A stretch of 43,248 nucleotides of DNA from a virus. The notes under the pieces were generated by a model. That model ran no database searches and had not been told where the DNA came from. It worked only from the letters and a program-made list of their open reading frames with translations. The first letter of the stretch is position 1. Every line of letters starts with the position of its first letter. Both the position numbers and the translations under genes were made by a program. The stretch lies in IMG/VR virus record IMGVR_UViG_3300045988_178743; one strand, 5' to 3'. Shown piece by piece: positions 46-43,248 of the stretch.

Positions 46-55
46 CGCCGAATAT
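38..55. repeat. Crossover site copy: perfect 18-bp palindrome ATATTCGGCGCCGAATAT between two head-to-head cassette starts
   Basis: Self-complementary by inspection. The same sequence occurs at 42759..42776 and 43194..43211. Confidence 0.9.
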
Positions 56-278
56 AACGGGTCAACTCAATAAATCACCTACGCCTTGGAGCGGCTTACT
101 TTATGAACAAAATGGGGCACTCAAGCCCGTTAACGTAGGTGATACAGCTTATTCCGGTCATACCAACGGTTCAAATTACCGTTTGGAATTTGATGCCTCT
201 TGTTCTAACAAAACCTACGGCAACAGTACAACCGTTCAGCCTCCATCGATTGCGCTCTTGCCGTGTATTAAGTTCTAA
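48..278 (+). other. Silent tail-fibre C-terminal cassette V6 (76 codons, PNITGQLNKSPTPW...TVQPPSIALLPCIKF-stop), no start codon
   Basis: My own translation from CCG at 48. It shares the PNITG start and the VQPP..LLPCIK end with the expressed fibre. It lies convergent with, and overlaps by 11 nt, the stop of gene 268..774. Confidence 0.85.
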
Positions 279-774
279 TGCAGGGGAGCAGGGAGATAGA
301 GGGCGGCTGAACCGTTGCCGAAGATCCGTAGATTGATGAAGTTCTGGATGCATAAAAATTGACAGCATTAGTGCTTGAAGCGCCCCCACCCGGAACATTT
401 ACATTCTGACTGACCATTGAAAACGCTCCGGATGATTCAGTAACCCACGGGGTTCCATTATGAGATCCGCTGATATTCGGTAAGCCCGCGCTTTTAAACG
501 TTCCGGCTGACCCAATTGAGGTTGTGCCCTCGACAAAACGATTCGCTAAATTTGGCAAGTTAAAAGTTGTACTTCCATCACCACTGCCATGTTTTGTACC
601 AATAACTGCGAAAAGCGCTGCGTATGTCGATCGACTCACAGCTGCACCGTTGCAGAGAAGCCAGCCATCAGGAACTGAATAGAAGTGTCCAAGCATTCCT
701 GTTGGCATGCTCAACGGCTTTAGCTTAGGGAGCAGATCATTCAATGCCTGAGAAATTTGAGTAAGAGTTGCCAT
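268..774 (-). CDS. Tail fibre distal subunit with a phage tail-collar-type domain; residues 99-168 are cassette V5 in the expression slot
   Basis: 168 aa. The motif DGWLLCNGAAVSRSTYAALFAVIGTKHGSGDGSTTFNLPNL is typical of the tail collar / MdpB-like domain. It lies last in the baseplate-fibre operon. The C-terminal 70 codons follow the CCGAATATCA junction. Confidence 0.85.
   Translation of the reverse strand: MATLTQISQALNDLLPKLKPLSMPTGMLGHFYSVPDGWLLCNGAAVSRSTYAALFAVIGTKHGSGDGSTTFNLPNLANRFVEGTTSIGSAGTFKSAGLPNISGSHNGTPWVTESSGAFSMVSQNVNVPGGGASSTNAVNFYASRTSSIYGSSATVQPPSISLLPCIRT
471..480 (-). repeat. Half crossover site inside the expressed fibre gene (sense CCGAATATCA = Pro-Asn-Ile-Ser)
   Basis: This is the same 10-mer that opens every silent cassette. 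The 480-bp terminal repeat ends exactly here. Confidence 0.8.
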
Positions 775-6855: not shown

Positions 6856-6863
6856 CCAAAACC

Positions 6864-8630
6864 TCAGTATGAGTAACGGTCGGCATAACCGACGGAGCCA
6901 AGAATGTCGAGGCCGCCACTGCCTTGAGCGTCAGTGATCGCCGCCGATGCGCCGCCGGTCGCAGTTACGTCGACCGCGACGCGGCCACTCACATGCTGCG
7001 ATGCAGTTAAGTTCACTGGCTCGACCCGCTGCACGGTTGCGGACTGTGTGCTGCCCGATGTTTTCGAGTCGCTCGAGAACCAGTTCTTCACGAAATCAGG
7101 CACGAGGGAAGCGAAGTCGAAGTTTGCGAAGAAGTCACGGATGATTCGACCAACATTTTGTACGCTTTTCTTGACACTCTCATACCAACCAGTACAAGCC
7201 TTCGCCCACGAATCTGGAAGCAAGTTGAACACGCTCTTGATGACATCATCAATACTGCGGAGCACCGCTGGAAAATCTCCGCGGAAAACTGCTTTAGCCG
7301 TTGAAAGTATCGAAGAACCTACTGCCCCAAATCTCTCGGTGAGACGATCCCATGCTGCGGCGACAAAATCGACACAGGCCTGAGCACCTTCCTTGATTGC
7401 TGGCCAGATGCGATCCCAGTTCGCGATCACAAGCCCCGCAGCAATTGCAACGGCGCTGATCACGAAGCCGACGGGTCCGAGTGCACCTGCCATAGCGACC
7501 CCGACTGTGCGGGCGATAGTCGCAAGCGTGCTGAATGTCTGAATCATCGTCATCACACTCGAGCCGAGAGCGACGACAGCCATAATCGTCTTTCCTGCCA
7601 TAATCGCGCCCATCGTGTACAAGACTGTATTGAACCCACCTACAGCATTGAAGGCACGAATCGCGTAATCCGCAAAAGCCAGGATCCCACTCACGATTCC
7701 TTCGAAATCAATACTCTCAAGCGATTGCGCGAAGCGCTCAGCAACTTGGGCGAACTTCTCAGAGAAAGCCTCCCGATTTGCGACGATCATGGTCTGGATA
7801 CGCCCAGTCATGCGTGTGATTGTCGGCGCTAATGATGAAGCTATTGTGTTGCCCACTGAAGTCACAACAAGGTGTAAGTTTGTGAACCCCGTGCTCAGAT
7901 CAGAAGCTGATTTCACCGCATCCCGACTCATTACGATGCCAAGTCGATGAGCTTCGGCACTCATATCGTCGAGCCCTGCAGCTCCAGCAGTCAGCATCGG
8001 TAAGAGCTTACGACCGCCCTCACCGAAGACGGCCATTGCCATCGAGGCTCGCAACGTCGGATCCTCGTTTCTCTGTATTGCGTCAGCAAAGTCACGGAAA
8101 ACGTCTTCAACCGAGCGCATGTTTCCGGCAGCATCTTTCATCTTGATGCCAAGAGCGTCGAAAAGCGTTGCCGCTTTCGATGTCGTGTCCATCCCCGTTG
8201 CGATTTCAGTCATGTGCTTGCCGAAATCCTTGAGCGCATCTTCAAGCGTTTCCTGAGAAGCGCCAGCCTGCACAGCCGCGTAGCCCCACTCTTGCAGGCG
8301 TTCGACACCCACTCCGACGCGCTGACTCATCTTGTCGAGCCCATCGCCAGTTGCTGTGAAACTCGATACCGCCTGTTGCATACTGAAGCCGACAGATCCA
8401 GCTGCCGCGGCAAGAGGACCGCCAACAATACTGCCGAGGTTTTTTGCGTTCTCGGCAACGTCCATCACAGACCGATTGAAGAGTCTTAACTGCTTCTGGA
8501 GACCCGTGAATTTCGTCGACTGAACGACCTTGGCAAGTCCAACCCATCGGGCGGAGAACGCTTTGACCACTGGCGATGCAACGTCTCTGATCGCAAGAAC
8601 GGCAGTCAATCTAAAGTCTTTACCCGCCAT
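6864..8630 (-). CDS. Tail tape measure protein
   Basis: About 588 aa from MAGKDFRLTAVL, Ala/Gly-rich with hydrophobic C-terminal segments. It follows the chaperone and its frameshift region. Confidence 0.85.
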   Translation of the reverse strand: MAGKDFRLTAVLAIRDVASPVVKAFSARWVGLAKVVQSTKFTGLQKQLRLFNRSVMDVAENAKNLGSIVGGPLAAAAGSVGFSMQQAVSSFTATGDGLDKMSQRVGVGVERLQEWGYAAVQAGASQETLEDALKDFGKHMTEIATGMDTTSKAATLFDALGIKMKDAAGNMRSVEDVFRDFADAIQRNEDPTLRASMAMAVFGEGGRKLLPMLTAGAAGLDDMSAEAHRLGIVMSRDAVKSASDLSTGFTNLHLVVTSVGNTIASSLAPTITRMTGRIQTMIVANREAFSEKFAQVAERFAQSLESIDFEGIVSGILAFADYAIRAFNAVGGFNTVLYTMGAIMAGKTIMAVVALGSSVMTMIQTFSTLATIARTVGVAMAGALGPVGFVISAVAIAAGLVIANWDRIWPAIKEGAQACVDFVAAAWDRLTERFGAVGSSILSTAKAVFRGDFPAVLRSIDDVIKSVFNLLPDSWAKACTGWYESVKKSVQNVGRIIRDFFANFDFASLVPDFVKNWFSSDSKTSGSTQSATVQRVEPVNLTASQHVSGRVAVDVTATGGASAAITDAQGSGGLDILGSVGYADRYSY

Positions 8631-8787
8631 CTGTTCTCTCCATTGCGATGCGATTCCATTGAGCCACGTAAAGATCTTGTTCCGAAAAGGACATCTGCAT
8701 AGTCTTCGAAGGAGCGAGCCTCCACACATACGCGAGATCAAAGCATCGCGCCAGGATGTCTTCTACTCGGCCCCTTCCCCGAAAAAA
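8620..8787 (-). CDS. -1 frame extension of the tail chaperone (frameshifted long form)
   Basis: The slippery TTTTTTC lies at 8781..8787 (minus sense). The -1 frame stays open to 8620 and ends overlapping the tape-measure start. Confidence 0.6.
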   Translation of the reverse strand, partial: FFRGRGRVEDILARCFDLAYVWRLAPSKTMQMSFSEQDLYVAQWNRIAMERTDGG

Positions 8788-9035
8788 CCCATCACCATCC
8801 AACACAGCACATTGAAGTCTTTGAGTGCGAGTGTTTCAATTACCGAAGGCGGCAGCCCTGCGAGTTTTGAAATGTAAGCTGCGCACACAGCAGTGTTGAG
8901 ATGAGGCATGCCGTCAAGATCTACTGTGTATGGCATACCAAGCTGTTTGCACATCTTTGTAGTCGGCTCCTTCAGATCGAGCTCGCTAATCTTCTCGCCA
9001 GCGTGTTCGATCGGATGCTTCAATTCGTACTTCAT
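8763..9035 (-). CDS. Tail assembly chaperone (gpE/gpG-like short form)
   Basis: 90 aa between the tube and tape-measure genes. It ends just after a T_TTT_TTC slippery heptamer. Confidence 0.7.
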   Translation of the reverse strand: MKYELKHPIEHAGEKISELDLKEPTTKMCKQLGMPYTVDLDGMPHLNTAVCAAYISKLAGLPPSVIETLALKDFNVLCWMVMGFFGEGAE

Positions 9036-9391
9036 GCCAAATCTCCATCCAGCCCTTCAAACCGAAGGCTGATCGTTCCGTCTACAGGCTTAAAGGCTGC
9101 ATCACCTACAAGCCACGCATCACTAAGTGTGTAAACCATACCGTTTGCGCATTCAGCAGTGATCGTCATGGATTCACTTTCCATGAGCGTTTCAGTAGGA
9201 AAGTCAGAAGTCACAATGAAGTCGCCTGCGATATAGGGCGTAGCGATCGTCTCCTTGAAGCCAACTGGGCCACCCGTCGAAGCCATCGTCTCACGAGTAA
9301 CTTTTGCCATTGGGAACTCTAGGTTCCCCTGCAGTTCGAGCTGCTGACCGTCCACTTTGAAATAGCAAGTACCTGCTAGTCGCTTACCCAT
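9032..9391 (-). CDS. Tail tube protein (Mu gpM-like)
   Basis: 119 aa, directly downstream of the sheath gene. Confidence 0.75.
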   Translation of the reverse strand: MGKRLAGTCYFKVDGQQLELQGNLEFPMAKVTRETMASTGGPVGFKETIATPYIAGDFIVTSDFPTETLMESESMTITAECANGMVYTLSDAWLVGDAAFKPVDGTISLRFEGLDGDLA

Positions 9392-9394
9392 TTG

Positions 9395-10888
9395 TTATTC
9401 CTCCGCGTACTGAAGACGGAACTGGTTGAGAAGTGCGAAAACACGCAGCTGATTTACATAGTCTGGCGGGAACAGCACATCGAGACGATTTGGATTGTCC
9501 GCATTGCGTTCGACGATGAGGTACTTCTTGAAAAGGTCCCTGTTCTCACAAATGCCTGAGGTCTCTAGACGTGCATATTCAGCTACGAGTTCGCCGCGGA
9601 TCACAGACGGTGTAACTATTGCCTGACCAGCGCCGTAGCGAGTACCGTCGCTCGCGAGCTTATGGCGCGCGTACTTCGACGTGATGATTGATTTGAGTCG
9701 GCGCAGCACGTAGGCAGACGTATGCAGCGTCTCGGAGTCGAGGTAGGACGCATCGGCGTCCCCCATAGAGTTCCTCTGATACGTCGTGATCGCCCTTTCG
9801 ATCTGCACCGTGCCGCTCACAGTCGTGAGCGTGGCGATGCCGTTCTCCAACAGTGTCTGGCGCTCCGTGAGAATGAACCGATTCTGCGTCGGCGAGGCCA
9901 TGACGCCGGTAAGAGCTCCAGTCTGCGTCGGACGGGCCGGATCGGCCGAGATGAAGACAGCAGTGCGCGCGACGTAGGCCGCGAGCACCTCTTCAACCGC
10001 AGTTGGCATCGAAGGCTCGACGCCGACGATCGTCATGTGCTGGTCGTTGCGAGCCGCGCCGAAGGTCTTGAGCTCTTCGAGCGTACCGCGCTTCGCGGTA
10101 TACACGTGACCGTAGATTTGGCGGAAAGGAGACCAACGGCCCGATGTGTCGTTCATCTCTGTCTTGAACGCATCGAGCACGACGGCGTCCGAGTAGGGAC
10201 AACCGATGAAATCGTACTGCTCGTCGCCCATAGCTTCGATTGCCTGATCAATCTCAGGATCAACCGTTCCGCCAGACATTGGCGTGATTGTCACGCTGAT
10301 ACCGGAAGGTGTCGCCTCGCCATTGATGAGACCACGAAGGTTGAGTGCAAGCTGAATGCCATTTCCGATCGTACCCTTCGTTCGTGCTGCAATCGTGCAG
10401 ATTCCGTCAGCGGCACCTGCCGTAACCGGCAGATCCTTTGAAAGAGAGATTGAGTCTGATAGTGCAATCGCGATTTGAGCACCCGTATCACCTTCTTTCA
10501 CGGCCACCAGCAGGCGTTCGCCTCCAATGTAGAAGGAGAGCGTACCGGCCTCGAGGGCGGTTCCTGTAATCTCGACCTTGCCTGCTGCCGCCCCTGCAGA
10601 CTGACCATCGGCTAATGGGATACACACGAGCTGACCGAAGCTGTCGACGGTACGATAGGCATCTACCATACGTGCGAGCATCGAACCGCGACCGAAGAGT
10701 TTCTTCGCCATCGCTACAGTCGAAACTGTCACCGGCACGCCCTCTTCGGCCGTTCCCGACTCAAGCTTCTGACCAATCAATAAACTCTGAGAAGTATTAG
10801 TCGGCGTGTAAGCCGCAGAATTATCCATCTCAGCATAAAAAAGCGGCACTCGAATGCCGCTCGGAATGGTATTGAAAGAAATACTCAT
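9395..10888 (-). CDS. Contractile tail sheath protein (Mu gpL-like)
   Basis: 497 aa. Called from size and position upstream of the tube gene. Confidence 0.8.
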   Translation of the reverse strand: MSISFNTIPSGIRVPLFYAEMDNSAAYTPTNTSQSLLIGQKLESGTAEEGVPVTVSTVAMAKKLFGRGSMLARMVDAYRTVDSFGQLVCIPLADGQSAGAAAGKVEITGTALEAGTLSFYIGGERLLVAVKEGDTGAQIAIALSDSISLSKDLPVTAGAADGICTIAARTKGTIGNGIQLALNLRGLINGEATPSGISVTITPMSGGTVDPEIDQAIEAMGDEQYDFIGCPYSDAVVLDAFKTEMNDTSGRWSPFRQIYGHVYTAKRGTLEELKTFGAARNDQHMTIVGVEPSMPTAVEEVLAAYVARTAVFISADPARPTQTGALTGVMASPTQNRFILTERQTLLENGIATLTTVSGTVQIERAITTYQRNSMGDADASYLDSETLHTSAYVLRRLKSIITSKYARHKLASDGTRYGAGQAIVTPSVIRGELVAEYARLETSGICENRDLFKKYLIVERNADNPNRLDVLFPPDYVNQLRVFALLNQFRLQYAEE

Positions 10889-11451
10889 AGATCCACCTTG
10901 ATATGTCCTTCGAGCCGGCCATCCGGCTGATCTTTCTGCATCGACGGATCAATGCAGTCCACATCGACATCCATGCCATCGAACGGCGACAGGGCATCGA
11001 GCTCGACCTTCTGGTAAGTGTCAGAAGTATCGATGTAGGTCTCAAAAGAAAACTCAAACTGATAGGCAGCACGTGCCGCGTCGATGTAGATGAGAACTCC
11101 GCCTTCGTAGACGATCTCACTGAACTCATCCTTGGGCTTCATGTGCCACGAAAGAATCGCTCGAAAGATCTCTGGACGCAGTACTTCAAGCCACCGACCG
11201 GCATCCTGCCCACGTTCGTCTGCACAGTTCGGCACGACTACGATCACCCCGAAGGTATTCGTAATCACCTGGTAATACCCGTTATTGGACTCCTGCGCTC
11301 CAGCATCCTCACGAAGCGGAGCAACGTAGGCAAAAGGCACGGGCGCATTCTCAGCGCGCTCAAGGCCTGCCCACTGCGCTGCGCCGCCAACCCTCTGGTG
11401 AAAGGAAGGGCAACGCTCTCGCAATGCGCTAATGATTGGATCCAGCTTCAT
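10885..11451 (-). CDS. Tail terminator/completion protein (Gp37/DUF1834-like)
   Basis: 188 aa between the connector genes and the sheath gene, with ATGA coupling. Family assignment is from memory only. Confidence 0.5.
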   Translation of the reverse strand: MKLDPIISALRERCPSFHQRVGGAAQWAGLERAENAPVPFAYVAPLREDAGAQESNNGYYQVITNTFGVIVVVPNCADERGQDAGRWLEVLRPEIFRAILSWHMKPKDEFSEIVYEGGVLIYIDAARAAYQFEFSFETYIDTSDTYQKVELDALSPFDGMDVDVDCIDPSMQKDQPDGRLEGHIKVDL

Positions 11452-26992: not shown

Positions 26993-28886
26993 CCCAAACT
27001 CCCGGGGATGCACCTAGTCCCGGAACACTCGCGGTGGCAAGGGCAAACCTAACAGGGTAAAGAGATCTCGGATTTTCTTCGGGATCTCTTTTGTTTTCCA
27101 AGCGTTGCGATCAGTTGGTTTATTGGCCTTCAGATAACGCAGCTGCATAAAGGCCTTCGTCAAAGAATTGCTGGGCAAACGGTTCGTTGCCGTTTCGTTG
27201 CGCCGACATGCCATACGCATCATCAGGCGCAGTGACTGGGCCAATACCTGGACAAACAGCTTGCCCATGTAGGTGCTTGAGGTCGCGTAGAGACGATCTC
27301 CAGCAGTTTGATTCTTAAACTGCTGGAAGCTCTGTTCGACAATGTTGCGGGCCCGATAAATGCTCAGAGCGATAAAAGGATCCTGGACGACGTTCGTGCG
27401 GATCACAAAGTTGCCCATGTAGCGGCACGCATCTGCCACTGCCGCGGCATTGCGCATCCAGTGCTGAGGCTCCTTTTTGACCAGGTACCGATGCATTTCT
27501 CTGAGCTGCTCCGAATCCACTTTTTTCCCTTGGTTGAGACGGTCAATCGTTTCATCGAGATTCTTTAGAAAGACTCGTTTCTGCTCGGCCCGCAGACACC
27601 CGTCCTGATACAAATGCAGTGTGTTGTGAATGTGCTGGCGTCCGGCTGCACCGTCTTCCTGCCACATTTCTGTCGTGGTGTACGCCGCCACTTCTAAGCG
27701 GCCATCGGTAAAAGCAGGATCGTCAAGGGAAACGCGGTGCTGATCAAAGAGCCGCCGAACAGAGTCTTCAGCTCGAGTTACACCTTGGACGAATTTCAGT
27801 TCCAGGTTGATGAGTTTTTGCATGTTCATCAAGCTGTGATAACCGCGATCCGTCACCAGCACGGTGTTGGAGAGATCAAATTGATGGTCGATCATGCGCT
27901 GCACAATAGCCAGATAGAGCTGCTTATCGTTAGTCGAGCCTTCGCTTTCGTAGGCATAGCAGACATCTCCCGTCTCGTAATCCACCCCTAAAGACAGATT
28001 CACTTGCCGCAGATGAGGATCCTGTCGGGCATGGCCATAGGCAGCCGAGGCGATGGTCTCTGAGTAAGTGCTGATGCTGGTGGAATCCAAAGCCAAAAAC
28101 TGCGGGATATCGGCAGCTGAGACCTTTTGTCGTGCTTTTAGCAGACGGTCGTGTCGACGTTTGAAGTACCGGTCCATCAGGCTCTGATCAACCACCGCGA
28201 GCTGCTCACTAATGCGCTGGCTCGATAAAGGCTGGGCTTGCGGCAGCCAGACCAAAGCCAGCCAATCCGCGTAATTCATCATGCCGCTGTCTTCCCCGCA
28301 GAGGCGATAGATGGCAAAGCGAAGCAGTTCCGTACCCGTATCTTCGCCAAAAGTCTCCTGTAAGTCCTCGAGCAAGCCATGGTCCACAGCGAATTGCCAG
28401 GCTGCCCAAGTCAACCCCAGTTCGACATCTTCCCCGCGCCAAGACGGCTGCGGTTCGTTGTCCGTATCCGGCTGCTCGAACGGCTCTTGTTCAATGAGCT
28501 GATTATTGTCGTAAAGCCAAAACTTGCCGGCGTATTCCGGGTTATTCGTGAGGAATTTGCGCCCGAGATGGACCTGCCCAGTTTGCGGATCCAAACGCCC
28601 GACATGGCATCGTTTCTCAATGCGTGACTGTTTCTTTTCCGGATCCCAGCGATTGCGATAGCCGTAGACATAGGTACGCCCATCGGCATCCGTGTACGTA
28701 GAGAAAGACCAAGGTTTTGGCGAAGATGGCATGATGTTGTCTATATTAAATAACTATAGACTATGATAAAGATAAAGCAAAGGCTTGTCAAGTTTTTATT
28801 AAATAAAAACAATGGATTAGGAAGAATAAATAGGCCGACTTTGCGTCAGATCAGGACCTCCCGGAGCTAGTCTCCGGGAGTTTGGG
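26993..28886 (-). mobile_element. Intact IS4-superfamily (IS1634-like) insertion sequence, 1894 bp
   Basis: Terminal inverted repeats are CCCAAACTCCCGG (26993..27005) and CCGGGAGTTTGGG (28874..28886), extending imperfectly inward. A 6-bp direct target duplication TTCTTA lies at 26987..26992 and 28887..28892. Confidence 0.85.
27014..28732 (-). CDS. DDE transposase, IS4 superfamily
   Basis: 572 aa with LALDSTS, VTDRGYHS and YRARNIVEQSFQQFK, the last matching the Y-2-R-3-E-6-K signature. Confidence 0.85.
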   Translation of the reverse strand: MPSSPKPWSFSTYTDADGRTYVYGYRNRWDPEKKQSRIEKRCHVGRLDPQTGQVHLGRKFLTNNPEYAGKFWLYDNNQLIEQEPFEQPDTDNEPQPSWRGEDVELGLTWAAWQFAVDHGLLEDLQETFGEDTGTELLRFAIYRLCGEDSGMMNYADWLALVWLPQAQPLSSQRISEQLAVVDQSLMDRYFKRRHDRLLKARQKVSAADIPQFLALDSTSISTYSETIASAAYGHARQDPHLRQVNLSLGVDYETGDVCYAYESEGSTNDKQLYLAIVQRMIDHQFDLSNTVLVTDRGYHSLMNMQKLINLELKFVQGVTRAEDSVRRLFDQHRVSLDDPAFTDGRLEVAAYTTTEMWQEDGAAGRQHIHNTLHLYQDGCLRAEQKRVFLKNLDETIDRLNQGKKVDSEQLREMHRYLVKKEPQHWMRNAAAVADACRYMGNFVIRTNVVQDPFIALSIYRARNIVEQSFQQFKNQTAGDRLYATSSTYMGKLFVQVLAQSLRLMMRMACRRNETATNRLPSNSLTKAFMQLRYLKANKPTDRNAWKTKEIPKKIRDLFTLLGLPLPPRVFRD

Positions 28887-31612: not shown

Positions 31613-32047
31613 GCTCTCCCGACTTTTTGGGTAAAGGAGAGTTTTGCGGCCCCCTCATCAGAGGGCGGGAACAGCTTCTCGCTGAGAGATTTGCAAAGCC
31701 CCATCTTTAATTACCAAAATCGAGCCTAACGTCTGGCTTGAGCCTACTTTAAGCACACAGCCCTCCATCTCCACCAAGCAGCGCCTGATGAAGTTGAGCG
31801 GCCTTTTGACGGCGGCTCACGCCGCCGGGTAATTAAAGAGGAGGGGCCTCTCTCGTTCCATGCCGAGGTCTGTGTGACAGAGGCGCGACTTGATCACTGC
31901 AGTCCACTCTCCAAGCAACAGGAGCGGGTTGCGACCTCTGCCCGGGAATGCGGCCTTGAGCTTTAGTGCGAAATACTCAAAGCTCTTGTAGCCGTAGGCA
32001 ATGCGCTTGATGAGCTTGGCTCTCGTGTTCACCCCCTCCAGTGACCC
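31613..32047 (-). mobile_element. ISL3-like IS remnant (transposase C-terminal fragment plus putative end)
   Basis: The minus-strand reading ...SLEGVNTRAKLIKRIAYGYKSFEYFALKLKAAFPG resembles ISL3 transposase C-termini. GGCTCT at 31613 is a typical ISL3 terminus. No N-terminal part is present. Confidence 0.5.
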
Positions 32048-32212: not shown

Positions 32213-33071
32213 TCAACTTCTTCAGGTCTTCTGCTTCAATGATCTCATCTGAAGAGGTTTCAGCAAGAAGGTCTTGTGCGTTCTTCTTGGAAACAATAGA
32301 GTGACCGATCTGCTTTTCTGCATCGCGTCTCGCTCGTCCGGCAACGCCACCACTCTTCTGAGCGACCATCTTGTTTTCCTCAAATGTTTGCGGATTTTGC
32401 GACTTCGTCATTTCGGTAGCCGTTGCTTCAGCAAACATCGTCAAAGCGGTCTCAAGGGTCGTCATGTTATCTCGTAGGTTGCCGCCCTTCATTCCCTTCA
32501 GTTTCTTATGATCCTTGACACTGATACCAAAAGCTCCTGAATGAATGATGTTTGTCAGTGTCGCGTATTGAAGGCCTTCTTGCACGCCGTGAGTCTTCCA
32601 TTGATCAGTTAACTCGTTGCGAACCTGAATACCCTGAATTCGCTGATTGATCCAGGCAGGGCTATACCCTTTCGCCTGATACGTCATTTTTGCGCGGACA
32701 ATAGCCTGCTCAGGGTCGACAGTTTCTTCTATTCGTTCCTTCCCAACAGAAGCTAACCATTGCTTAAAAGGCTCCGCCTTAGGTGACGGGATAGACTGAA
32801 CGATTCGCAGTATTTGTTCAATTGACGCTGCATCCGTTAATCTTCCTTTCCCGTCTGGCGCAGTCATTTTCAACCGTACGATATTTTCGTACGTTTGATT
32901 GGCCCCCTCTTTTTTCAGCTTCCGCTTTAGATCGCTCCAATACCGTTTAGGTTCAGAGCTGCCGGTAAGTACGCTGACAACGTCAACCACGCTGAAAAAC
33001 CTCTCTTCCTTCTGATCATCCCAAGCAGATCGCACTTGATGATCTTCAAACAATTGAATCTTCCCTTTCAT
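32208..33071 (-). CDS. Bro-N/DinD-like (DNA-damage-inducible protein D-like) protein
   Basis: The start MKGKIQLFEDHQVRSAWDDQKEERFFSVVDVV overlaps the integrase stop (ATGA). SPKAEPFKQWLASVG is the Bro-N-type motif. Confidence 0.6.
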   Translation of the reverse strand: MKGKIQLFEDHQVRSAWDDQKEERFFSVVDVVSVLTGSSEPKRYWSDLKRKLKKEGANQTYENIVRLKMTAPDGKGRLTDAASIEQILRIVQSIPSPKAEPFKQWLASVGKERIEETVDPEQAIVRAKMTYQAKGYSPAWINQRIQGIQVRNELTDQWKTHGVQEGLQYATLTNIIHSGAFGISVKDHKKLKGMKGGNLRDNMTTLETALTMFAEATATEMTKSQNPQTFEENKMVAQKSGGVAGRARRDAEKQIGHSIVSKKNAQDLLAETSSDEIIEAEDLKKLK

Positions 33072-34414
33072 TTCATCTCCTTCCAACAAAATTCTCCCCA
33101 AGCTTCGTAGACATCTCTCATGTCGCCCAGCGCCTGCTCACGGTCGTAAGCGCACTGATAGCTTTCATTACGATGATCAAGGCAGCTCTCTCGCAGATCA
33201 CGCGGGAAAGCCTTGTGCCCATAGCCCTTCGCATCCTTCGCCCAGGTATTGAAAGTCGCACGAGCAAGGCCGTGCAGCGTCACGATTCTAGGCTGCCCGT
33301 CCCGCGTTTTTTCGTCCAGATCAACCCAGCCGACGCCGTCAATCTTCTTCTGCTTGACGTGCATGCGCTTCAGCAGCGCTCGCACAGAATCACGGCTGAA
33401 AGCGGAGAGACGGCCCTTGTTGATGTTCGGAAAGATGAAGCCCTTCTCATCGTCCGGAAACCTCGGCGCACTGTCGAGAAGCGCTGTCGCCTGCGGACTT
33501 AGAGGCGTCTTTCGGTCAAAAGGAATCTTGTCGCTCTTCATCTTCATGCGACCACGAGGAATGACATGCAGCCAATGGCCGTCATCGTCCTGCTGAATTT
33601 CGTCCCAAGTTGCTTCACGTGCCGTGGTGTTCCGCGCTGATGTAAGAATGGCAAAAGCAAGGCAACGTGCAGTCTGGCTTTGCGGCACCAGCTTCATAAG
33701 CTCGGCAAAAAAAGCTGGCATTCTCTTCGGATGAAGAGCTGGTTCGTGACCACCATCCGGTCGATCAAGCGCGAGAAGGTCACCGAGCTTTCCATTTTTC
33801 ACCTGACACGGATTGAGCATGGCCGGGATCATCTCCTGTCTCATAGCCCAGTCATATGCATTGCGCATATCGGACAAGATGCGTTCTGGCGTGTCTATCA
33901 TCGTTCGCCACTTCTCTCCGATTTCCTCATGTACTCGTTCGGCAGTCAAATCCTTCGCCGACATGGAGAGCAGTGATGCAGATAAGTGATTTCGGCAGTA
34001 ACCATCCCAGACAAGCTCTTTTGGCTTTAAGGCATTCTTCCACCGTCCACGTTCTTCATTGAACCGGATCCAGCTGTAGACAATGTCTTTAACTGAAGGT
34101 TCTCGCGGAGACTCTAGCAGCCTTGTAAGCTGCTCTGCTTTTTGCTTCTTGACTTCTGAAGGATCTATTCCATCATCCAGCATCCGCCGCCAATCCGCAG
34201 CCATCATAAAAGCTTCACTTAAGCTCAGCTGAGGGTAAGAGCCAAGATTAAAGCACCGTTTAGTGCGACGATCCCGCAGAACGAAATATTTGACAATCGA
34301 ACCGTCACTCCTGCTGCGTGGACGGACATACAGACCAGGAACTACCCCACAAGCCGTTTCGGAAGTAACGCTTCGGAGTTTTTTATCGGTCATTTTGACT
34401 GCGACTCTAGGCAT
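33068..34414 (-). CDS. int: Tyrosine integrase (P4/CP4-57-like)
   Basis: 448 aa. The N-terminal GLYVRPRSRSDGSIVKYFVLR is an arm-binding type motif. Catalytic candidates are R (TSARNTTAREA), HxxR (HGLARAT) and H...Y (LDHRNESYQCAYDRE). It is adjacent to the att-like region. Confidence 0.85.
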   Translation of the reverse strand: MPRVAVKMTDKKLRSVTSETACGVVPGLYVRPRSRSDGSIVKYFVLRDRRTKRCFNLGSYPQLSLSEAFMMAADWRRMLDDGIDPSEVKKQKAEQLTRLLESPREPSVKDIVYSWIRFNEERGRWKNALKPKELVWDGYCRNHLSASLLSMSAKDLTAERVHEEIGEKWRTMIDTPERILSDMRNAYDWAMRQEMIPAMLNPCQVKNGKLGDLLALDRPDGGHEPALHPKRMPAFFAELMKLVPQSQTARCLAFAILTSARNTTAREATWDEIQQDDDGHWLHVIPRGRMKMKSDKIPFDRKTPLSPQATALLDSAPRFPDDEKGFIFPNINKGRLSAFSRDSVRALLKRMHVKQKKIDGVGWVDLDEKTRDGQPRIVTLHGLARATFNTWAKDAKGYGHKAFPRDLRESCLDHRNESYQCAYDREQALGDMRDVYEAWGEFCWKEMK

Positions 34415-34602: not shown

Positions 34603-34633
34603 GCAACAAAAAAGGTCATCTTACGATGACCTT
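34603..34633 (-). terminator. Hairpin terminator immediately 3' of the tRNA-like core
   Basis: AAGGTCATC-TTAC-GATGACCTT. In minus sense it is followed by TTTTTTG, and in plus sense by CTTTTG. Confidence 0.65.
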
Positions 34634-34645
34634 CTTTTGTTGATC

Positions 34646-34665
34646 TGGTCGGGGCGGCGGGATTC
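34646..34665 (-). other. att core resembling the 3' end of a tRNA gene (partial, not a functional tRNA)
   Basis: The minus sense reads GAAT-CCCGC-CGCCCCG-A-CCA, which is T-loop end, T-stem 3' strand, acceptor 3' strand, discriminator and CCA. No matching 5' half lies upstream. Confidence 0.6.
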
Positions 34666-39681: not shown

Positions 39682-39920
39682 CTCTCCCCCCTCATACTTG
39701 GCGGAAGTTGACGTCGATGTATTTCTGCCAAATAACTTTCATAGCAATGGTCTTCATCGAACCAAAGTAGTGTGTCAATAAACGTTTTCGGCCACGTAAA
39801 ACCCTCTTGAGACAATCGATATGCACGACTTGATAACGATTCATCGGCATATCCACCAAGCAACGCGTTCAGCAGTTGATCGATAGCGATGAGTACTTGC
39901 TTCAAGCGCCGCCACATCAT
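39678..39920 (-). CDS. Hypothetical protein
   Basis: 80-aa ORF coupled to both neighbours. Confidence 0.4.
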   Translation of the reverse strand: MMWRRLKQVLIAIDQLLNALLGGYADESLSSRAYRLSQEGFTWPKTFIDTLLWFDEDHCYESYLAEIHRRQLPPSMRGER

Positions 39921-40675
39921 TCGCTCACAGAAAAGTCGACGGGATGAAACTTGATTTCGATAGCTTCAAGCTCATCTTTCGACGTTGCGGCGTTGATAGC
40001 ATCGCGCAGCTTCCACTTCTCCTGATAAGCAGCGGTACCGGCCGCAATGATTTCGAGCTGAAGTGTCTTGAGATCTGAGAGCGTTACTTTGTGAGCTTCA
40101 TTGTTGGCATCCATAAAGAGCAGACCAGTCTCGGCGAACGTAGTACTGGCTTCTGCCGCTACGATGAGACCGGTAACGTCTTGCATCGCACGGCTATCGC
40201 TGTCAACTTCAAAGCCGAGTGAACTTACAAGCGTTGCGCCATCGGCATACCAAGTTGTAAACGTCGAATCGAGTTGAGCTGTTTTTTCAGCTTTGGCATC
40301 TTCGAACGTCTTTTCGGGAATTTTCTCGACCCTCCAAGAAAGGTTGTCACCTCTCACAACGTGGTACTCACTCGATCCTTCGGTCAGTTTCTGGAAAAGT
40401 TCGCGCAACTCACTGCAGTGAGCCGTCTGCGATTCATGCGAGATAACACCACACGCAACACACTCGGCGGCAGTCGTCGGCTTCTTTTCTGCATCAAAAC
40501 CGTCACGCGTCGCGTTTAACTTGTAAAAGAAATGTTCCGTGTCTTCGGGCACGGCAGCTTCTGCAACATTGGCTGGGAGGCTGATCCCGCCTCCCATCTG
40601 CACCGAGCAGACGCCTTCAAAATAGCCGTCCTCGTCTACAAAAGGGAGGTCTTTGAGCAAATGATTGGATGGCAT
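39917..40675 (-). CDS. DUF4376-like protein (fibre assembly/accessory)
   Basis: Start MPSNHLLKDLPF. The C-terminal ...LSDLKTLQLEIIAAGTAAYQEKWKLRDAINAATSKDELEAIEI resembles DUF4376. Confidence 0.55.
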   Translation of the reverse strand: MPSNHLLKDLPFVDEDGYFEGVCSVQMGGGISLPANVAEAAVPEDTEHFFYKLNATRDGFDAEKKPTTAAECVACGVISHESQTAHCSELRELFQKLTEGSSEYHVVRGDNLSWRVEKIPEKTFEDAKAEKTAQLDSTFTTWYADGATLVSSLGFEVDSDSRAMQDVTGLIVAAEASTTFAETGLLFMDANNEAHKVTLSDLKTLQLEIIAAGTAAYQEKWKLRDAINAATSKDELEAIEIKFHPVDFSVSE

Positions 40676-40677
40676 GA

Positions 40678-41847
40678 ATGCGCTCCTCCTTATCTTCAAA
40701 AAAAATTGCGGCCTTAAAGCCGCGTGAAAAACGATTCGCTGTGGCTGACGGCCACGGTTTGTGTTTGCGTATCTATCCTTCTGGCGTTAAAAGTTGGTAC
40801 CTGCGCATCTCATATTCAGGCCGCGTGACAGACATCGCACTCGGTCGATGGCCAGAAATCAGCTTGATGCAAGCTCGACAGGAAGCTCGCAGGCGACGAA
40901 AAACACTTGGTCTTGAACCACCGAGAGGCTATGTCTTAAATGACGCCTTCAAACTTTGGTGTGGTCTAAAGAAAGGCCGCATCGTGAGTTACGCCGACGA
41001 ACGTCGACGATTGGAGCGCTATCTCATCAAACCCCTCGGAAGACGCCAGATTGACGAAATCTCTGCACCACTCGTCATTACAACCGTTAAGCACATCGAG
41101 GCAGAGGGGCATCAAGCAACACTGAAGCGCGTTCTCATGCGAACACGTGAAATACTTGACCTCGCCGTGTGTGCGGGCTACATCCATCACAATCCTTGCG
41201 AGCGTTTGAGCCGTGTCTTTGCAGCTCCCGTTGTTACGCCCATGCCGGCACCGGAGTGGCATGAACTACCAAACATCATGCAGGTGATGAAATCCGCTCC
41301 CGTACGTATGCGAATTCTTTTCCTTTTCTCGACCTGTTCAATGCTGCGTCCTGGGGAAAACGCAAAGCTCAAGCGTTCATGGATTGATGGCGACATCCTC
41401 ACGATCCCCGCCAAAGAGATGAAAATGGGGCGTATGCACCGTGTTCCGCTCACTGTCTTCATGAAGCAACTCCTCGAAGCTGAGCTACGCCTTTCTCCCC
41501 ATCCCAGAGGAGATGTCATCTTCGCTGCCAAACAAGCGGGCAAACATATCAGCACTCAAACGCTTGCTAAGTATCTGCATTCAACGCAACTCTCCGGGAA
41601 GCTCGTGGCCCACGGTCTACGTTCGATGGCACGATCGTGGATGGCAGATCAAGAGATTTCTTTTGAAGTCGCTGAAGCATGCCTTTCACATGTTGCTGGC
41701 TCTTCTGTATCGCGGGCCTACCAAAGAAGCGACTTTCTCACAGCACGCGTTCTAGTTATGACGCGCTGGAGTACCTTCATCAAGCGCTGTGCCCGAGAAG
41801 CCGATATGCTCGATGGAATCCTTGAACCCGAGCGGGACAAGATCTGA
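40678..41847 (+). CDS. Tyrosine recombinase, P4-integrase-like architecture; candidate fibre-cassette invertase
   Basis: 389 aa. The N-terminal IAALKPREKRFAVADGHGLCLRIYPSGVKSWYLR is DUF4102-like. Catalytic candidates are R (MLRPGE), HxxR (AHGLRS), H (LSH) and Y (SRAYQRSD). It is immediately upstream of the cassette array. Confidence 0.85.
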   Translation: MRSSLSSKKIAALKPREKRFAVADGHGLCLRIYPSGVKSWYLRISYSGRVTDIALGRWPEISLMQARQEARRRRKTLGLEPPRGYVLNDAFKLWCGLKKGRIVSYADERRRLERYLIKPLGRRQIDEISAPLVITTVKHIEAEGHQATLKRVLMRTREILDLAVCAGYIHHNPCERLSRVFAAPVVTPMPAPEWHELPNIMQVMKSAPVRMRILFLFSTCSMLRPGENAKLKRSWIDGDILTIPAKEMKMGRMHRVPLTVFMKQLLEAELRLSPHPRGDVIFAAKQAGKHISTQTLAKYLHSTQLSGKLVAHGLRSMARSWMADQEISFEVAEACLSHVAGSSVSRAYQRSDFLTARVLVMTRWSTFIKRCAREADMLDGILEPERDKI

Positions 41848-41872
41848 TCTAATCACCCAATATGACATGTGC

Positions 41873-41909
41873 CTAGCCCTGCGTTTAGAAGTACAGACCG
41901 CAGGGCTAG
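41873..41909 (+). terminator. Hairpin after the recombinase gene
   Basis: CTAGCCCTGCG-N15-CGCAGGGCTAG (11-bp stem). The T-tract is weak (AAACGTGCTTTT). Confidence 0.45.
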
Positions 41910-41926
41910 AAACGTGCTTTTGATGA

Positions 41927-42142
41927 CCGAATATCACTGGTCAATTTCAGGGTGGTGACCACCTTGAGACACTGGCTTCCGGCGCCTTTGGATACGCAAA
42001 AGAATCCACATCTACCCTTGGTGGAGGCGCTTATAAGTTAGATATCGGAGATTTCAAGGCTTCTCGAAGCTCTTCCGTCTACGGGGGCTATTCTGGCGTT
42101 CAACCACCAAGCATTGCCATGCTCCCATGCATCAAAATTTGA
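41927..42142 (+). other. Silent fibre cassette V1 (71 codons, PNITGQFQGGDHLE...GVQPPSIAMLPCIKI-stop)
   Basis: My own translation. In-frame TGA TGA precedes it directly and there is no start codon. The site at its 5' end is only a half-site. Confidence 0.85.
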
Positions 42143-42347
42143 TACAAGGAAGCAATGCCATTGCCGGAGGCTGAACAGTTGAAGCTGAGCCGTAAATCGA
42201 AGATGATTTAGACGCATTTATGTACAAGTTGGTACCGTTGTCTGCTCCGCCCCCAGGACCTCTTGTGGTTTCGCTTTTGTACAAAGCTCCGGCTTCAGCA
42301 AGGCCACCCCATGCGTAAGACATATTGATGTTGCCGGTTATATTCGG
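42132..42347 (-). other. Silent fibre cassette V2 (71 codons, PNITGNINMSYAWGG...TVQPPAMALLPCIKF-stop)
   Basis: It is the C-terminal part of ORF-track ORF 42132..42464. The stop overlaps the V1 stop by 11 nt. Confidence 0.85.
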
Positions 42348-42356
42348 TCCGAATAT
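42340..42356. repeat. Crossover site s1: 17-bp palindrome ATATTCGG-T-CCGAATAT between V2 and V3
   Basis: Seen by direct inspection. Flanking arms are imperfectly symmetric out to about 35 bp. Confidence 0.85.
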
Positions 42357-42564
42357 CACAGGTAACGTCAATGTCGCTAAAGGGTGGGGCAGCATCGCAG
42401 ATGCCGGCGCTTTATATAGAGAGGGGACTACACAAGCACCGGGGGGCGGTGCCGCAAACGGCACTTATGTGTACTTAGTGGCGTCTAGATCTTCCTCAGT
42501 TTTCGGCTCTTCTTCTACTGTTCAACCGCCATCCGTTGCGTTGTTGCCATGCATCAAAATTTAA
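42349..42564 (+). other. Silent fibre cassette V3 (71 codons, PNITGNVNVAKGWGS...TVQPPSVALLPCIKI-stop)
   Basis: It is the C-terminal part of ORF-track ORF 42325..42564. Confidence 0.85.
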
Positions 42565-42766
42565 TGCAAGGTAGAAGCGCCATCGCCGGAGGCTGAACAC
42601 CAGAAGAGCGGCCGAACGTCGAATCGGACGACGAAGCGTCAAAAGAGAATTGAACCGCAGAGGTTTGACTACCATTTGCCCCATTCAAGTAACCGGCATT
42701 CGAAAACGCACCTGAAATGGTCTGATTGTCGGCCTTAGAAGCGCCGAACTTACCGGTGATATTCGG
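42554..42766 (-). other. Silent fibre cassette V4 (70 codons, PNITGKFGASKADNQTISGAF...GVQPPAMALLPCIKF-stop)
   Basis: My own codon-by-codon translation. An in-frame TGA lies 3 codons upstream of PNITG. The stop overlaps the V3 stop by 11 nt. Confidence 0.85.
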
Positions 42767-42776
42767 CGCCGAATAT
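42759..42776. repeat. Crossover site s2: perfect 18-bp palindrome ATATTCGGCGCCGAATAT (22 bp if the TG..CA flanks are included)
   Basis: Seen by direct inspection. It is identical to 38..55. Confidence 0.9.
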
Positions 42777-42981
42777 CAGCGGATCTCATAATGGAACCCC
42801 GTGGGTTACTGAATCATCCGGAGCGTTTTCAATGGTCAGTCAGAATGTAAATGTTCCGGGTGGGGGCGCTTCAAGCACTAATGCTGTCAATTTTTATGCA
42901 TCCAGAACTTCATCAATCTACGGATCTTCGGCAACGGTTCAGCCGCCCTCTATCTCCCTGCTCCCCTGCATTAGAACTTAA
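42769..42981 (+). other. Inverted duplicate of cassette V5, the tip currently in the expressed gene
   Basis: It is the exact reverse complement of 268..480 and here is joined to the V4 flank instead of the constant part of the gene. Confidence 0.9.
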
Positions 42982-43201
42982 TACACGGCAAGAGCGCAAT
43001 CGATGGAGGCTGAACGGTTGTACTGTTGCCGTAGGTTTTGTTAGAACAAGAGGCATCAAATTCCAAACGGTAATTTGAACCGTTGGTATGACCGGAATAA
43101 GCTGTATCACCTACGTTAACGGGCTTGAGTGCCCCATTTTGTTCATAAAGTAAGCCGCTCCAAGGCGTAGGTGATTTATTGAGTTGACCCGTTATATTCG
43201 G
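42971..43201 (-). other. Inverted duplicate of cassette V6
   Basis: It is the exact reverse complement of 48..278. Confidence 0.9.
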
Positions 43202-43211
43202 CGCCGAATAT
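43194..43211. repeat. Crossover site copy (mirror of 38..55)
   Basis: The same 18-bp palindrome. Confidence 0.9.
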
Positions 43212-43248
43212 CACCGGTAAGTTCGGCGCTTCTAAGGCCGACAATCAG

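Follow-up and report, generated by a model that had tools for sequence, protein, structure and literature searches.

The DNA analysed here (the window, one stretch of 43,248 nucleotides) is the circular genome, about 42.7 kb long, of a temperate phage whose host is Sutterella wadsworthensis; the phage is a myovirus, and its baseplate is Mu-like. A megablast search of positions 39900-43248 against GenBank phages and PLSDB plasmids returned no match, so the region has no annotated close relative there. Analysis of the nucleotide sequence revealed six start-less cassettes of 70-76 codons, located between a collar-domain tail-fibre gene and the gene of a 389-aa tyrosine recombinase. The features of this region are as follows.

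774..268, minus strand: collar-domain tail-fibre tip gene (PF07484, E 8e-22), with V5 directly after the site at 471-480
481..774, minus strand: constant part of the fibre tip gene, 98 codons; last gene of the Mu-like baseplate/tail operon
473..480, minus strand: crossover core CCGAATAT at the constant/variable junction (slot 1), encoding Pro99-Asn-Ile of the fibre protein
268..480, minus strand: cassette V5, 70 codons, fused to the constant region and hence the expressed tip
48..278, plus strand: cassette V6, 76 codons, silent in the main arrangement
40678..41847, plus strand: 389-aa tyrosine recombinase with arm-binding, central and catalytic domains, P4/CP4-57-type, the putative shufflon invertase
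41873..41909: GC-rich hairpin CTAGCCCTGCG...CGCAGGGCTAG with a T run behind it, lying after the recombinase stop and before the first site
41927..41934, plus strand: recombinase-proximal crossover core CCGAATAT (slot 4), whose left flank 'ttgatga' stays fixed
41927..42142, plus strand: cassette V1, 71 codons, silent in the present arrangement
42132..42347, minus strand: cassette V2, 71 codons, silent; tail-to-tail with V1 (unit A)
42340..42356: internal double site, V2 core (minus) and V3 core (plus) head-to-head with a 1-nt spacer
42349..42564, plus strand: cassette V3, 71 codons, silent
42554..42766, minus strand: cassette V4, 70 codons, silent; tail-to-tail with V3 (unit B)
42759..42776: internal double site, V4 core (minus) and the next core (plus) head-to-head with the 2-nt spacer CG
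42769-42981 (plus) and 43201-42971 (minus): duplicate copy of V5 and V6 (unit C)

Cassettes, sites and the fibre tip

All six cassettes were found in the positions and orientations given by an earlier note on this DNA, with shared starts and ends and dissimilar middles; each opens with CCGAATAT(C/A)A, and the deduced proteins start with PNI(T/S)G and close with VQPP...LPCI(K/R)x-stop. The 3' ends of the cassettes have about 45-60 nt of similar inverted sequence in common. The motif CCGAATATMA is present in ten copies in the window against 0.15 expected by chance, a number reached in none of 100 shuffles, and all copies are confined to the array or to the duplicate of the array. The crossover core is the 8-bp CCGAATAT, which encodes Pro-Asn-Ile and is followed by (C/A)A-S-N-GG; a site thus written (also as CCGAATATCANNGG) comprises the core and about 6 bp in common, its right side, MASNGG, being conserved and the left flanks unconserved. 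The sites occupy four fixed slots: one at the constant junction, two formed by the internal head-to-head double sites, and one at a distance of 80 bp from the recombinase stop. We rejected the view that the internal palindromic junctions form full, symmetric sites with the crossover in their middle, since the spacers stay in their slot while the cassette heads move, and it is also contradicted by the two outer slots, which have no palindrome.

The fibre tip protein consists of 168-174 aa, in which 98 fixed codons are followed by the 70-76 codons of one cassette, and the expressed gene carries V5 right after the 10-mer, as had been described. The protein is probably an intertwined trimer; an AlphaFold2 monomer model based on a 60-sequence alignment was poor, with a pLDDT of 50 and a pTM of 0.29. 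The other cassettes are silent because they have neither a start of their own nor the constant part. The earlier note had attributed their silence to in-frame stops just upstream, and such stops do precede V1, V4 and V5, but none lies immediately before V2 or V3, and it is not the stops that silence the cassettes. Upstream of V2 and V3, spurious open reading frames read across the palindromic junctions. A diversity-generating retroelement was considered on account of a neighbouring gene with an Mtd_N domain and was rejected because a reverse transcriptase is absent and the variation consists of exact cassette exchange; no reverse transcriptase family occurred among the Pfam matches listed for the 50 open reading frames, five weak families lying outside that list.

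The hairpin between the recombinase stop and the first site folds with -28.4 kcal/mol (z = -4.4), and the equivalent spacer of nine other lineages also carries a strong hairpin of different sequence. Its probable role is that of a bidirectional terminator, separating transcription of the recombinase from the convergent transcription of the fibre and cassettes. A scan of 40300-43248 for promoter and terminator consensus sequences gave matches no commoner than in shuffles and missed this long-loop hairpin.

Cassette orders and junctions in independent assemblies

Comparison of the six predicted fusions of the constant part and a cassette with independent assemblies revealed that five occur exactly and the sixth as a 97% variant. 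The constant+V5 protein is exactly WP_337945504.1 of S. wadsworthensis, the exact constant+V2 protein was present on 13 contigs, and the exact proteins with V1, V3 and V6 were likewise found in other assemblies. The constant+V4 protein was found only with a 97%-identical V4 variant (P0175), the exact fusion being absent from the protein collection searched. Alternative constant-to-cassette junctions, which the earlier note had proposed to look for in support of a receptor-binding-tip shufflon with six alternative tips, are consequently present in public assemblies for every cassette, and that proposal is upheld by the six cassettes and their fusions. At least 28 different tips were found joined to this constant part (at least 98% identical).

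Among contigs whose cassettes are 100% identical, at least eight signed orders were observed, and single inversions connect them. Inversion of the whole array of contig L023 gives the order of the window, L024 corresponds to L023 with unit B flipped, and L035 corresponds to L028 with block AB flipped. The breakpoints always fall inside CCGAATAT and the flanks of the four slots are invariant; contigs from three other samples end at 41934-41937, within the first site. In the window itself the V4 double site is joined both to V5 (42769) and to V6 (at 45/48), which shows inversion within the sample. Positions 1-480 of the window are the exact reverse complement of 42769-43248 (480 nt, 100%; unit C and the V4 head), and this terminal inverted duplication is an assembly artefact, the assembler having walked the invertible V5/V6 unit both ways in a circular genome of about 42.7 kb. 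The V5/V6 stretch at 48-480, previously taken for a separate second copy, has to be discounted as such.

Orders that differ between samples could in principle be fixed strain differences, but the 100% identity and the heterogeneity within the window argue against this. Arrays of one, two or three units occur within a lineage of 98-99% identity, and units are therefore gained or lost. Directly repeated sites coexist in the full six-cassette loci, where no deletions were observed, and no mechanism of inversion bias is evident. Judged from the assembled sequences, the shufflon is active.

It is extremely improbable that no programmed switch exists and that the orders are assembly artefacts, or rare RecA-dependent rearrangements at short repeats that became fixed in different strains. 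Short-read assemblers do mis-join at repeats, the window contains an assembly artefact of its own, and the cassette 3' ends carry similar inverted sequence over about 45-60 nt; the breakpoints, however, were never in these longer similarities and always in the 8-bp core, which disfavours the RecA route because the core does not offer the length that RecA needs. Independent assemblers and sources (Logan, ENA, NCBI isolates and IMG) moreover gave fusions in frame for every cassette, the wobble positions of the core are uniform within arrays, and the architecture recurs in about 100 loci.

The adjacent recombinase and the probable lysogeny integrase

Pfam searches with the 389-aa enzyme identified PF13356 Arm-DNA-bind_3 (3.2e-16), PF22022 Phage_int_M (6.5e-14) and PF00589 Phage_integrase (4.2e-16), in agreement with the P4-type N-terminus (DUF4102, that is Arm-DNA-bind_3) recognised before. 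The N-terminal domain matched 3jtz and 3ju0 in the PDB, and the domain is kept in homologues down to 42% identity; arm-type sites were not identified for this enzyme. The residues R224, K249, H312, R315, H338 and Y348 are invariant in 13 homologues (62-100% identity). The closest annotated relatives in GenBank phages, at about 30-32% identity, are all called integrases, and the enzyme scored 164 bits against NCBIfam PRK09692 'integrase domain-containing', below the cut-off of 434.

The earlier note had also stated that the enzyme is neither Rci-like nor Gin-like and that no frame encodes a serine invertase, and both statements hold. BLASTP of the 389-aa enzyme against R64 Rci gave E 0.94, and the enzyme is not Rci-like because it keeps the P4-type arm-binding domain. 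None of the 50 open reading frames of the window (at least 110 aa) carries a Resolvase domain (PF00239). A serine invertase in small or broken frames was rejected, since tblastn with Mu Gin in all six frames gave a best E of 0.22 over 32 aa.

Homologues of the 389-aa enzyme (42-99% identity) were found in about 100 Sutterellaceae/Succinatimonas loci, nearly always 60-130 bp upstream of arrays with 2-21 sites, and the linkage holds across Sutterella, Duodenibacillus, Ca. Aphodousia and Succinatimonas. In S. wadsworthensis DSM 14016 the array is located at about 140.7-142.0 kb of contig NZ_QNRV01000004.1. Genome loci with 3 kb or more of sequence beyond the recombinase have at least two sites within 6 kb downstream of it in 13/13 cases, the first site lying 80-163 bp past the recombinase stop in 11/13. 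Among IMG/VR loci with at least 1.5 kb downstream, 61/64 carry at least two sites, usually with the first one 63-130 bp past the stop, and sites downstream on these contigs reach 16 times background density. In most lineages a collar-domain fibre gene forms the far end of the array. Within one array all cores agree in their wobble bases, which differ by lineage (CCGAATAT, CCGAACAT, CCGGACAT, CCTGACAT, CCAAACAT, CCCAACAT, CCTAATAT and CCAAATGT); this points to a constraint at the DNA level. From the conserved linkage we infer that the 389-aa enzyme catalyses the inversions, and it is most likely a dedicated invertase derived from a phage integrase.

The claim that this recombinase is the only one nearby had overlooked a second arm-domain enzyme, which adjoins attP.

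33068..34414, minus strand: 448-aa arm-domain integrase (PF13356 5.2e-11; PRK09692 2.8e-16), outside the shufflon
34604..34665: attP core, the 62-bp overlap of attL-side and attR-side homology

Contig L001 matches the window from 34604 upward and contig L039 from 34665 downward. The 448-aa integrase, the probable lysogeny integrase, is located at the prophage end beside host ihfA/pheST, and the prophage/host junctions lie 190-250 bp from its start and about 6 kb from the 389-aa gene, which is internal to the prophage and not at its end. No tRNA turned up when the window and the attL locus were scanned, and the att site is therefore not a tRNA gene. The position of the 448-aa integrase beside attP leaves the 389-aa enzyme free to be the invertase and strengthens that reading.

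On this arrangement it is very unlikely that the 389-aa recombinase serves lysogeny, either as the phage's integrase or as an enzyme with both integrase and invertase functions, and that its vicinity to the array is incidental. The GenBank-phage relatives (about 30-32%) called integrases and the match to PRK09692 speak for such a role, but the score of 164 is far under the cut-off, and the junctions at 34604-34665 lie beside the 448-aa integrase and some 6 kb from the 389-aa gene. We also consider it unlikely that the inversions are real and are catalysed in trans by a recombinase encoded elsewhere in the Sutterella chromosome, the 389-aa protein having another role as a second integrase or an accessory recombinase. 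Master invertases acting in trans exist, such as Mpi of Bacteroides fragilis (cited in PMC6109161), and the 389-aa enzyme has the full integrase architecture including the arm domain. Against a catalyst in trans, the layout from recombinase to first site is kept from 42% to 99% identity and in 61/64 viral contigs with nearly fixed spacing, the module travels on virome contigs, and the att core adjoins a different integrase while a second att-like role for the 389-aa enzyme is absent.

The preferred reading is therefore a six-tip tail-fibre shufflon with the adjacent 389-aa recombinase as its invertase and a separate 448-aa lysogeny integrase, to which we assign a probability of about 0.78. Conservative site-specific recombination between two oppositely oriented cores would invert one, two or three units, so that another cassette follows the constant part in frame. 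The DNA 5' of the core keeps its slot, while from core position 9 on the DNA moves with the cassette, and the three units allow 48 signed orders and six proteins. The putative catalyst is the adjacent convergent 389-aa enzyme, lysogeny would be handled by the 448-aa integrase next to attP, and a population of lysogens would be predicted to shed virions with differing receptor specificities.

All dedicated invertases known to us (FimB/E, Rci and Rin) are without an arm domain, which makes an arm-bearing invertase unusual. Tentatively, the arm domain or the conserved hairpin spacer by the first site may control the preference for inversion over deletion, and this would represent a mechanistically new class of tyrosine invertase.

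Relation to known switches and significance

The earlier note knew of no characterised equivalent, which was overstated, since the Rin shufflon, described by Mavrich et al. in 2018 from prophages of Bifidobacterium breve/longum and Eggerthella lenta, is a predicted tyrosine-recombinase shufflon of a phage receptor-binding protein (PMC6109161; PMC8778435). Rin is XerD-like without an arm-type domain, and an 11-bp asymmetric rix repeat (TTCCCTAACCC) precedes each variable cassette of its arrays (PMC6109161), whose orders differ between prophage and virion genomes (PMC6109161; PMC8778435). In both systems a constant receptor-binding protein gene is combined with start-less C-terminal cassettes, and the array is flanked by a tyrosine recombinase other than the integrase of the prophage. 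By the description of Rin, the 389-aa enzyme with its Arm-DNA-bind_3 and Phage_int_M domains is set apart from the armless Rin; the sites also differ (TTCCCTAACCC against CCGAATAT-MASNGG), and Rin belongs to siphoviruses of Actinobacteria with TP901-1-like receptor-binding proteins, whereas the host of the present phage, a myovirus with a collar-domain tip, is a betaproteobacterium.

In plasmid R64 the sfx sites have a conserved core and one conserved arm, the other arm being unconserved, and inversions of single segments as well as of whole blocks give many orders without deletion. The present array resembles the R64/IncI shufflon in its invertible segments with tail-to-tail alternative 3' ends, in the recombinase gene at the array end, and in the sites, since those of the Sutterella phage have an unconserved left arm and a conserved right side. 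The sfx sequence is nevertheless unrelated to the CCGAATAT sites, Rci (R64, NC_005014) has PF00589 only, to which the 389-aa enzyme adds PF13356 and PF22022, and the target of R64 is the type IV pilus adhesin PilV of a conjugative plasmid, in contrast to the PF07484 collar-domain fibre of a prophage.

The serine-invertase fibre switches Gin/G of Mu, Cin/C of P1, Pin of e14 and Min of p15B, the last with multiple segments, invert segments of about 3 kb including chaperone genes by means of 26-bp sites and a Fis enhancer. They share with the present array the choice of an alternative fibre C-terminus by inversion beside the gene of the recombinase, where the tail operon ends, but here the enzyme is of the tyrosine type, the cassettes are of about 215 bp, the core is of 8 bp and no chaperone is co-inverted. 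Integrases of the P4/CP4-57 type (Arm-DNA-bind_3) have the same three domains and the catalytic R-K-H-R-H-Y of the 389-aa enzyme; unlike theirs, its gene is away from att and adjoins the inversion array, and its identity to integrases of GenBank phages is at most 32%.

Switches of this kind are thus already known, while this type of enzyme and this group of phages appear undescribed. No paper in open-access text contained both 'Sutterella' and 'shufflon', and open-access text on Sutterella prophage inversions or tail-collar inversions held no description of this system. Sutterella and its relatives are prevalent in the human gut, and to our knowledge hardly any of their phages have been characterised.

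The array is compact, with an 8-bp core, cassettes of about 215 bp and one enzyme, and it is abundant in public data and easily testable. Such arrays break short-read assemblies and produce terminal inverted duplications like that of this window. They might be turned into a programmable tool for multi-state inversion, or be used as a library of natural receptor-binding tips. The finding extends phage fibre shufflons with a tyrosine recombinase beyond the Actinobacteria of Rin, and it suggests that inversion can be taken over by an arm-bearing enzyme of the integrase type, which bears on the control of directionality in tyrosine recombinases. The shufflon provides a concrete and widespread mechanism by which prophages of the Sutterella group would vary their receptor specificity, with a predicted effect on host range. 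If the reading of a new class of invertase is true, this class would power libraries of 2 to about 20 tip cassettes in prophages of Sutterellaceae that are common in the human gut.

Cassette array, fibre gene and terminal duplicate

Re-examination of the sequence found the six cassettes exactly where the earlier note had placed them.

Features of the fibre-tip module
41927-42142, + strand: start-less cassette V1
42347-42132, - strand: start-less cassette V2
42349-42564, + strand: start-less cassette V3
42766-42554, - strand: start-less cassette V4
42769-42981, + strand: start-less cassette V5
43201-42971, - strand: start-less cassette V6
774..268, - strand: expressed fibre gene, 168-aa Collar-domain protein (PF07484, E 8e-22)

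All cassettes start with CCGAATAT(C/A)A, coding Pro-Asn-Ile-(Thr/Ser)-Gly, and end with ...VQPP...LPCI(K/R)x-stop, their middles being unrelated; this 10-mer was observed ten times in the window against a chance expectation of 0.15. Paired tail to tail, the cassettes make up three units, A (V1/V2), B (V3/V4) and C (V5/V6), whose heads abut as near-palindromes with a spacer of 1 nt or 2 nt. The last 70 codons of the expressed fibre gene are V5. A profile of the fibre family aligned from end to end, the cassette part as well, with the solved phage fibres 9cuy (short tail fibre), 8kec (long tail fibre) and 1ocy (T4 gp12), which places the crossover site inside one receptor-binding domain, at the conserved LP(N/D)(I/V) motif. 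Exchange of these tips would be expected to alter host range.

Directly upstream of the fibre tip, the gene at 792-1391 (- strand) carries an Mtd_N domain (PF18454), the domain found at the N-terminus of the tropism determinant of Bordetella phage BPP-1; its product is probably a fibre shaft or adaptor bearing the collar-domain tip. Among the Pfam matches listed for the phage there was no reverse transcriptase.

Positions 1-480 of the window, read in reverse complement, are identical to 42769-43248. This terminal inverted duplication spans 480 bp without a mismatch, and a further 55 bp pair between 42722-42776 and 43194-43248. Terminal inverted duplications are typical when an assembler passes through an invertible segment in both orientations. 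The second copy of V5 and V6 listed in the earlier note is accordingly an assembly artefact, the assembler having traversed unit C both ways. The actual genome is circular, about 42.7 kb long, and closes at the V4 head. Because both orientations of unit C were walked, the V4 head has two different partners in the window, V4|V5 at 42766/42769 and V4|V6 at 45/48, and these junctions are within-sample evidence for inversion of unit C.

Alternative orders and crossover point

Fusions of the constant part of the fibre gene (98 N-terminal codons) to each of the six cassettes were built in silico and looked up by exact sequence. Independent assemblies, NCBI S. wadsworthensis isolates among them, contained those with V1, V2, V3, V5 and V6 as full-length exact proteins, and the constant part fused to a 97%-identical V4 variant was also found (P0175, a fibre protein of the collection), so that the alternative junctions expected of a shufflon do occur. 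In the contigs bearing these proteins every cassette showed 100% nucleotide identity and the signed orders differed.

Signed orders of units in the window and in contigs from other assemblies, in fibre orientation
Window: C, -B, -A
Window, alternative junction: -C ...
L023: A, B, -C
L024: A, -B, -C
L028: -A, -B, C
L029: -A, B, -C
L035: B, A, C
L031 / L032: -A', -C, -B (one cassette replaced)

Flipping the whole array of L023 gives the window order, while flipping its unit B or unit A gives the orders of L024 and L029, respectively; a flip of block AB converts L028 into L035. Cassette loss was not found among the full-length loci compared. In three other samples, contigs terminate at 41934-41937, inside the first site. 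The shufflon is thus active in nature.

All arrangements compared share four invariant slots, and any cassette head is able to fill any slot.

Left flanks of the four slots
Constant junction: 'gggctta'
First internal double site: 1-nt spacer
Second internal double site: 2-nt spacer CG
Recombinase-proximal slot: 'ttgatga'

Sequence 5' of CCGAATAT is fixed in the slot and sequence from core position 9 onwards travels with the cassette; this limits strand exchange to the 8-bp core. Beyond the core, conservation is restricted to the right side (MA-S-N-GG), the left flank not being conserved, and the sfx sites of R64 have the same established one-sided asymmetry.

Recombinases, host and prophage variation

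Pfam scans over 50 ORFs of the window show a temperate myovirus with portal, HK97-type capsid, terminase, sheath, tube and Mu-like baseplate (gp44-48) genes, together with lysis genes, an S24 repressor, a YqaJ exonuclease and an inserted IS. Sutterella wadsworthensis is the host; its type strain DSM 14016 carries the prophage with a 99%-identical recombinase (L004).

Recombinase genes and att core
40678-41847: 389-aa recombinase (Arm-DNA-bind_3, Phage_int_M and Phage_integrase domains)
33068-34414, - strand: 448-aa integrase (arm domain, match to integrase model PRK09692)
34604-34665: att core, 62 bp, 190-250 bp from the 448-aa gene start, upstream of the gene

Residues R224, K249, H312, R315, H338 and Y348 of the 389-aa recombinase are invariant among its homologues. 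The 448-aa integrase is divergent, with R, H..R, H and Y motifs and no PF00589 match at E<0.01; the public collection indexes it in 2614 blocks, which makes the prophage family a very common one. Two types of contig located the prophage junctions. In integrated copies such as L001, homology to the window begins at 34604 and runs upward, and host pstSCAB lies beyond it; in contigs with the 448-aa gene, homology begins at 34665 and runs downward, host pheST-ihfA being the neighbour. Together they delimit the att core. The prophage site in S. wadsworthensis lies between ihfA/pheST and pstSCAB, with the 389-aa gene 6 kb inside the prophage. Judged by gene position, the separate 448-aa enzyme at attP would be the natural lysogeny integrase, leaving the 389-aa enzyme without an integration role. 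The 389-aa enzyme does lie beside the array, as the earlier note stated, but is not the sole candidate recombinase implied there. A serine invertase is indeed missing: no Resolvase domain was detected in the 50 ORFs, and six-frame tblastn of the window with Mu Gin gave a best E of only 0.22.

The IS of this phage copy, at 27014-28732 (- strand) in the early region, encodes a 572-aa DDE_Tnp_1 transposase; other prophage copies carry a DDE_Tnp_1 IS (533 aa) elsewhere, adjoining the Bro-N gene at window ~31962-31967 (L039 7583-9184). In L041 (ENA ERZ28657413 scaffold_617, 5001-11347) host pst permease genes come straight after the integrase, Bro-N gene and IS; this looks like a prophage remnant after loss of nearly the whole phage, possibly by IS-mediated deletion. 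The DUF4376 gene (39917-40699, - strand) is divergent from the recombinase, which its annotated start overlaps by 22 bp; this domain is common in tail-fibre or chaperone-like proteins. The stretch just past its 3' end measures ~1 kb in DSM 14016 (L004 8265-9258) versus ~0.2 kb in the window (~39716-39932), adding a second variable region close to the fibre module.

Enzyme-array linkage and known shufflons

Homologues of the 389-aa enzyme were collected from 19 genome loci (Sutterella, Duodenibacillus, Ca. Aphodousia and Succinatimonas; 42-99% identity) and 80 IMG/VR loci, and the arm domain is kept even in distant ones. Thirteen genome loci extend 3 kb or more past the recombinase; every one has at least two sites within 6 kb downstream, the first being 80-163 bp past the recombinase stop in 11 of them. 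Likewise, of the 64 viral loci in which 1.5 kb or more follows the recombinase, 61 have two or more sites of the form CCNRAYRTYA, the first usually 63-130 bp past the stop codon. An array holds between 2 and 21 sites, downstream site density is 16 times background, and in most lineages a collar-domain fibre gene, transcribed towards the recombinase, forms the distal end. Core wobble bases are uniform inside one array and differ between lineages, which indicates constraint at the DNA level, not the protein level. One constant region was joined to at least 28 distinct tips. We infer from this conserved linkage that the 389-aa enzyme catalyses the inversions.

The lineage at 98-99% recombinase identity has arrays of one, two or three units; the IMG/VR loci L044, L045, L047 and L103 hold one or two units (2 or 4 sites) versus three in the window, reflecting either fast gain and loss of units or assembly collapse. 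Larger arrays in related phages have 21 sites (L108 7239-12665, IMGVR_UViG_3300045988_174001), 15 sites (L070 6806-10200) and 17 sites (L011 11240-15548); these also contain head-to-tail cassettes, with the site immediately after the preceding stop codon, and head-to-head site spacers of 0-7 nt. With so many directly repeated sites, the inversion bias must be strong; deletion may be avoided through the arm domain or the spacer beside the first site. In every lineage a strong GC hairpin, not conserved in sequence, occupies the spacer that separates the recombinase stop from the first site (41873-41909 in the window), with equivalents in L008, L011, L018, L022, L048, L057, L070, L108 and L120. 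It is probably a terminator, and may also serve in recombinase binding or regulation.

The present system shares its logic with Rci-type shufflons, but its enzyme is not Rci (BLASTP E ~1): R64 Rci has the catalytic domain only, whereas the 389-aa enzyme has an arm domain as well. Gin-type systems use a serine recombinase, which this phage does not have, and the description of the enzyme as neither Rci-like nor Gin-like therefore holds. Its identity to any integrase in GenBank phages is at most 32%. Among published systems, the nearest analogue is the Rin shufflon, known from Bifidobacterium prophages and also reported in Eggerthella lenta; it was described as the first phage-encoded tyrosine-family invertase and predicted from synteny and prophage-versus-virion genome inversions (PMC6109161, PMC8778435). 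Rin is a precedent for a system of which the earlier note knew no characterised equivalent; its enzyme is described as XerD-like and lacking an arm domain, and its rix site as 11 bp long (PMC6109161, PMC8778435), while the 389-aa enzyme is integrase-like with an arm domain. In our search of open-access literature, no publication described such a system for Sutterella or for collar-domain fibres, and a broad inversion survey lists tail-fibre targets without the present module (PMC9881135). That survey includes a long-read-confirmed inversion (CP084655.1 816997-818571) whose target is a PilV-N-terminus/phage-tail-collar fusion in a pilus operon (PMC9881135); collar-domain tips like the present ones may have been exchanged between phage fibres and conjugative-pilus shufflons.

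The original reading of the locus was largely right, although it missed the second integrase, the artefactual nature of the duplicate and the precedent of Rin. The system is a variant of a kind of shufflon already known; its support is good, it occurs widely in the human gut, and it is easy to test.
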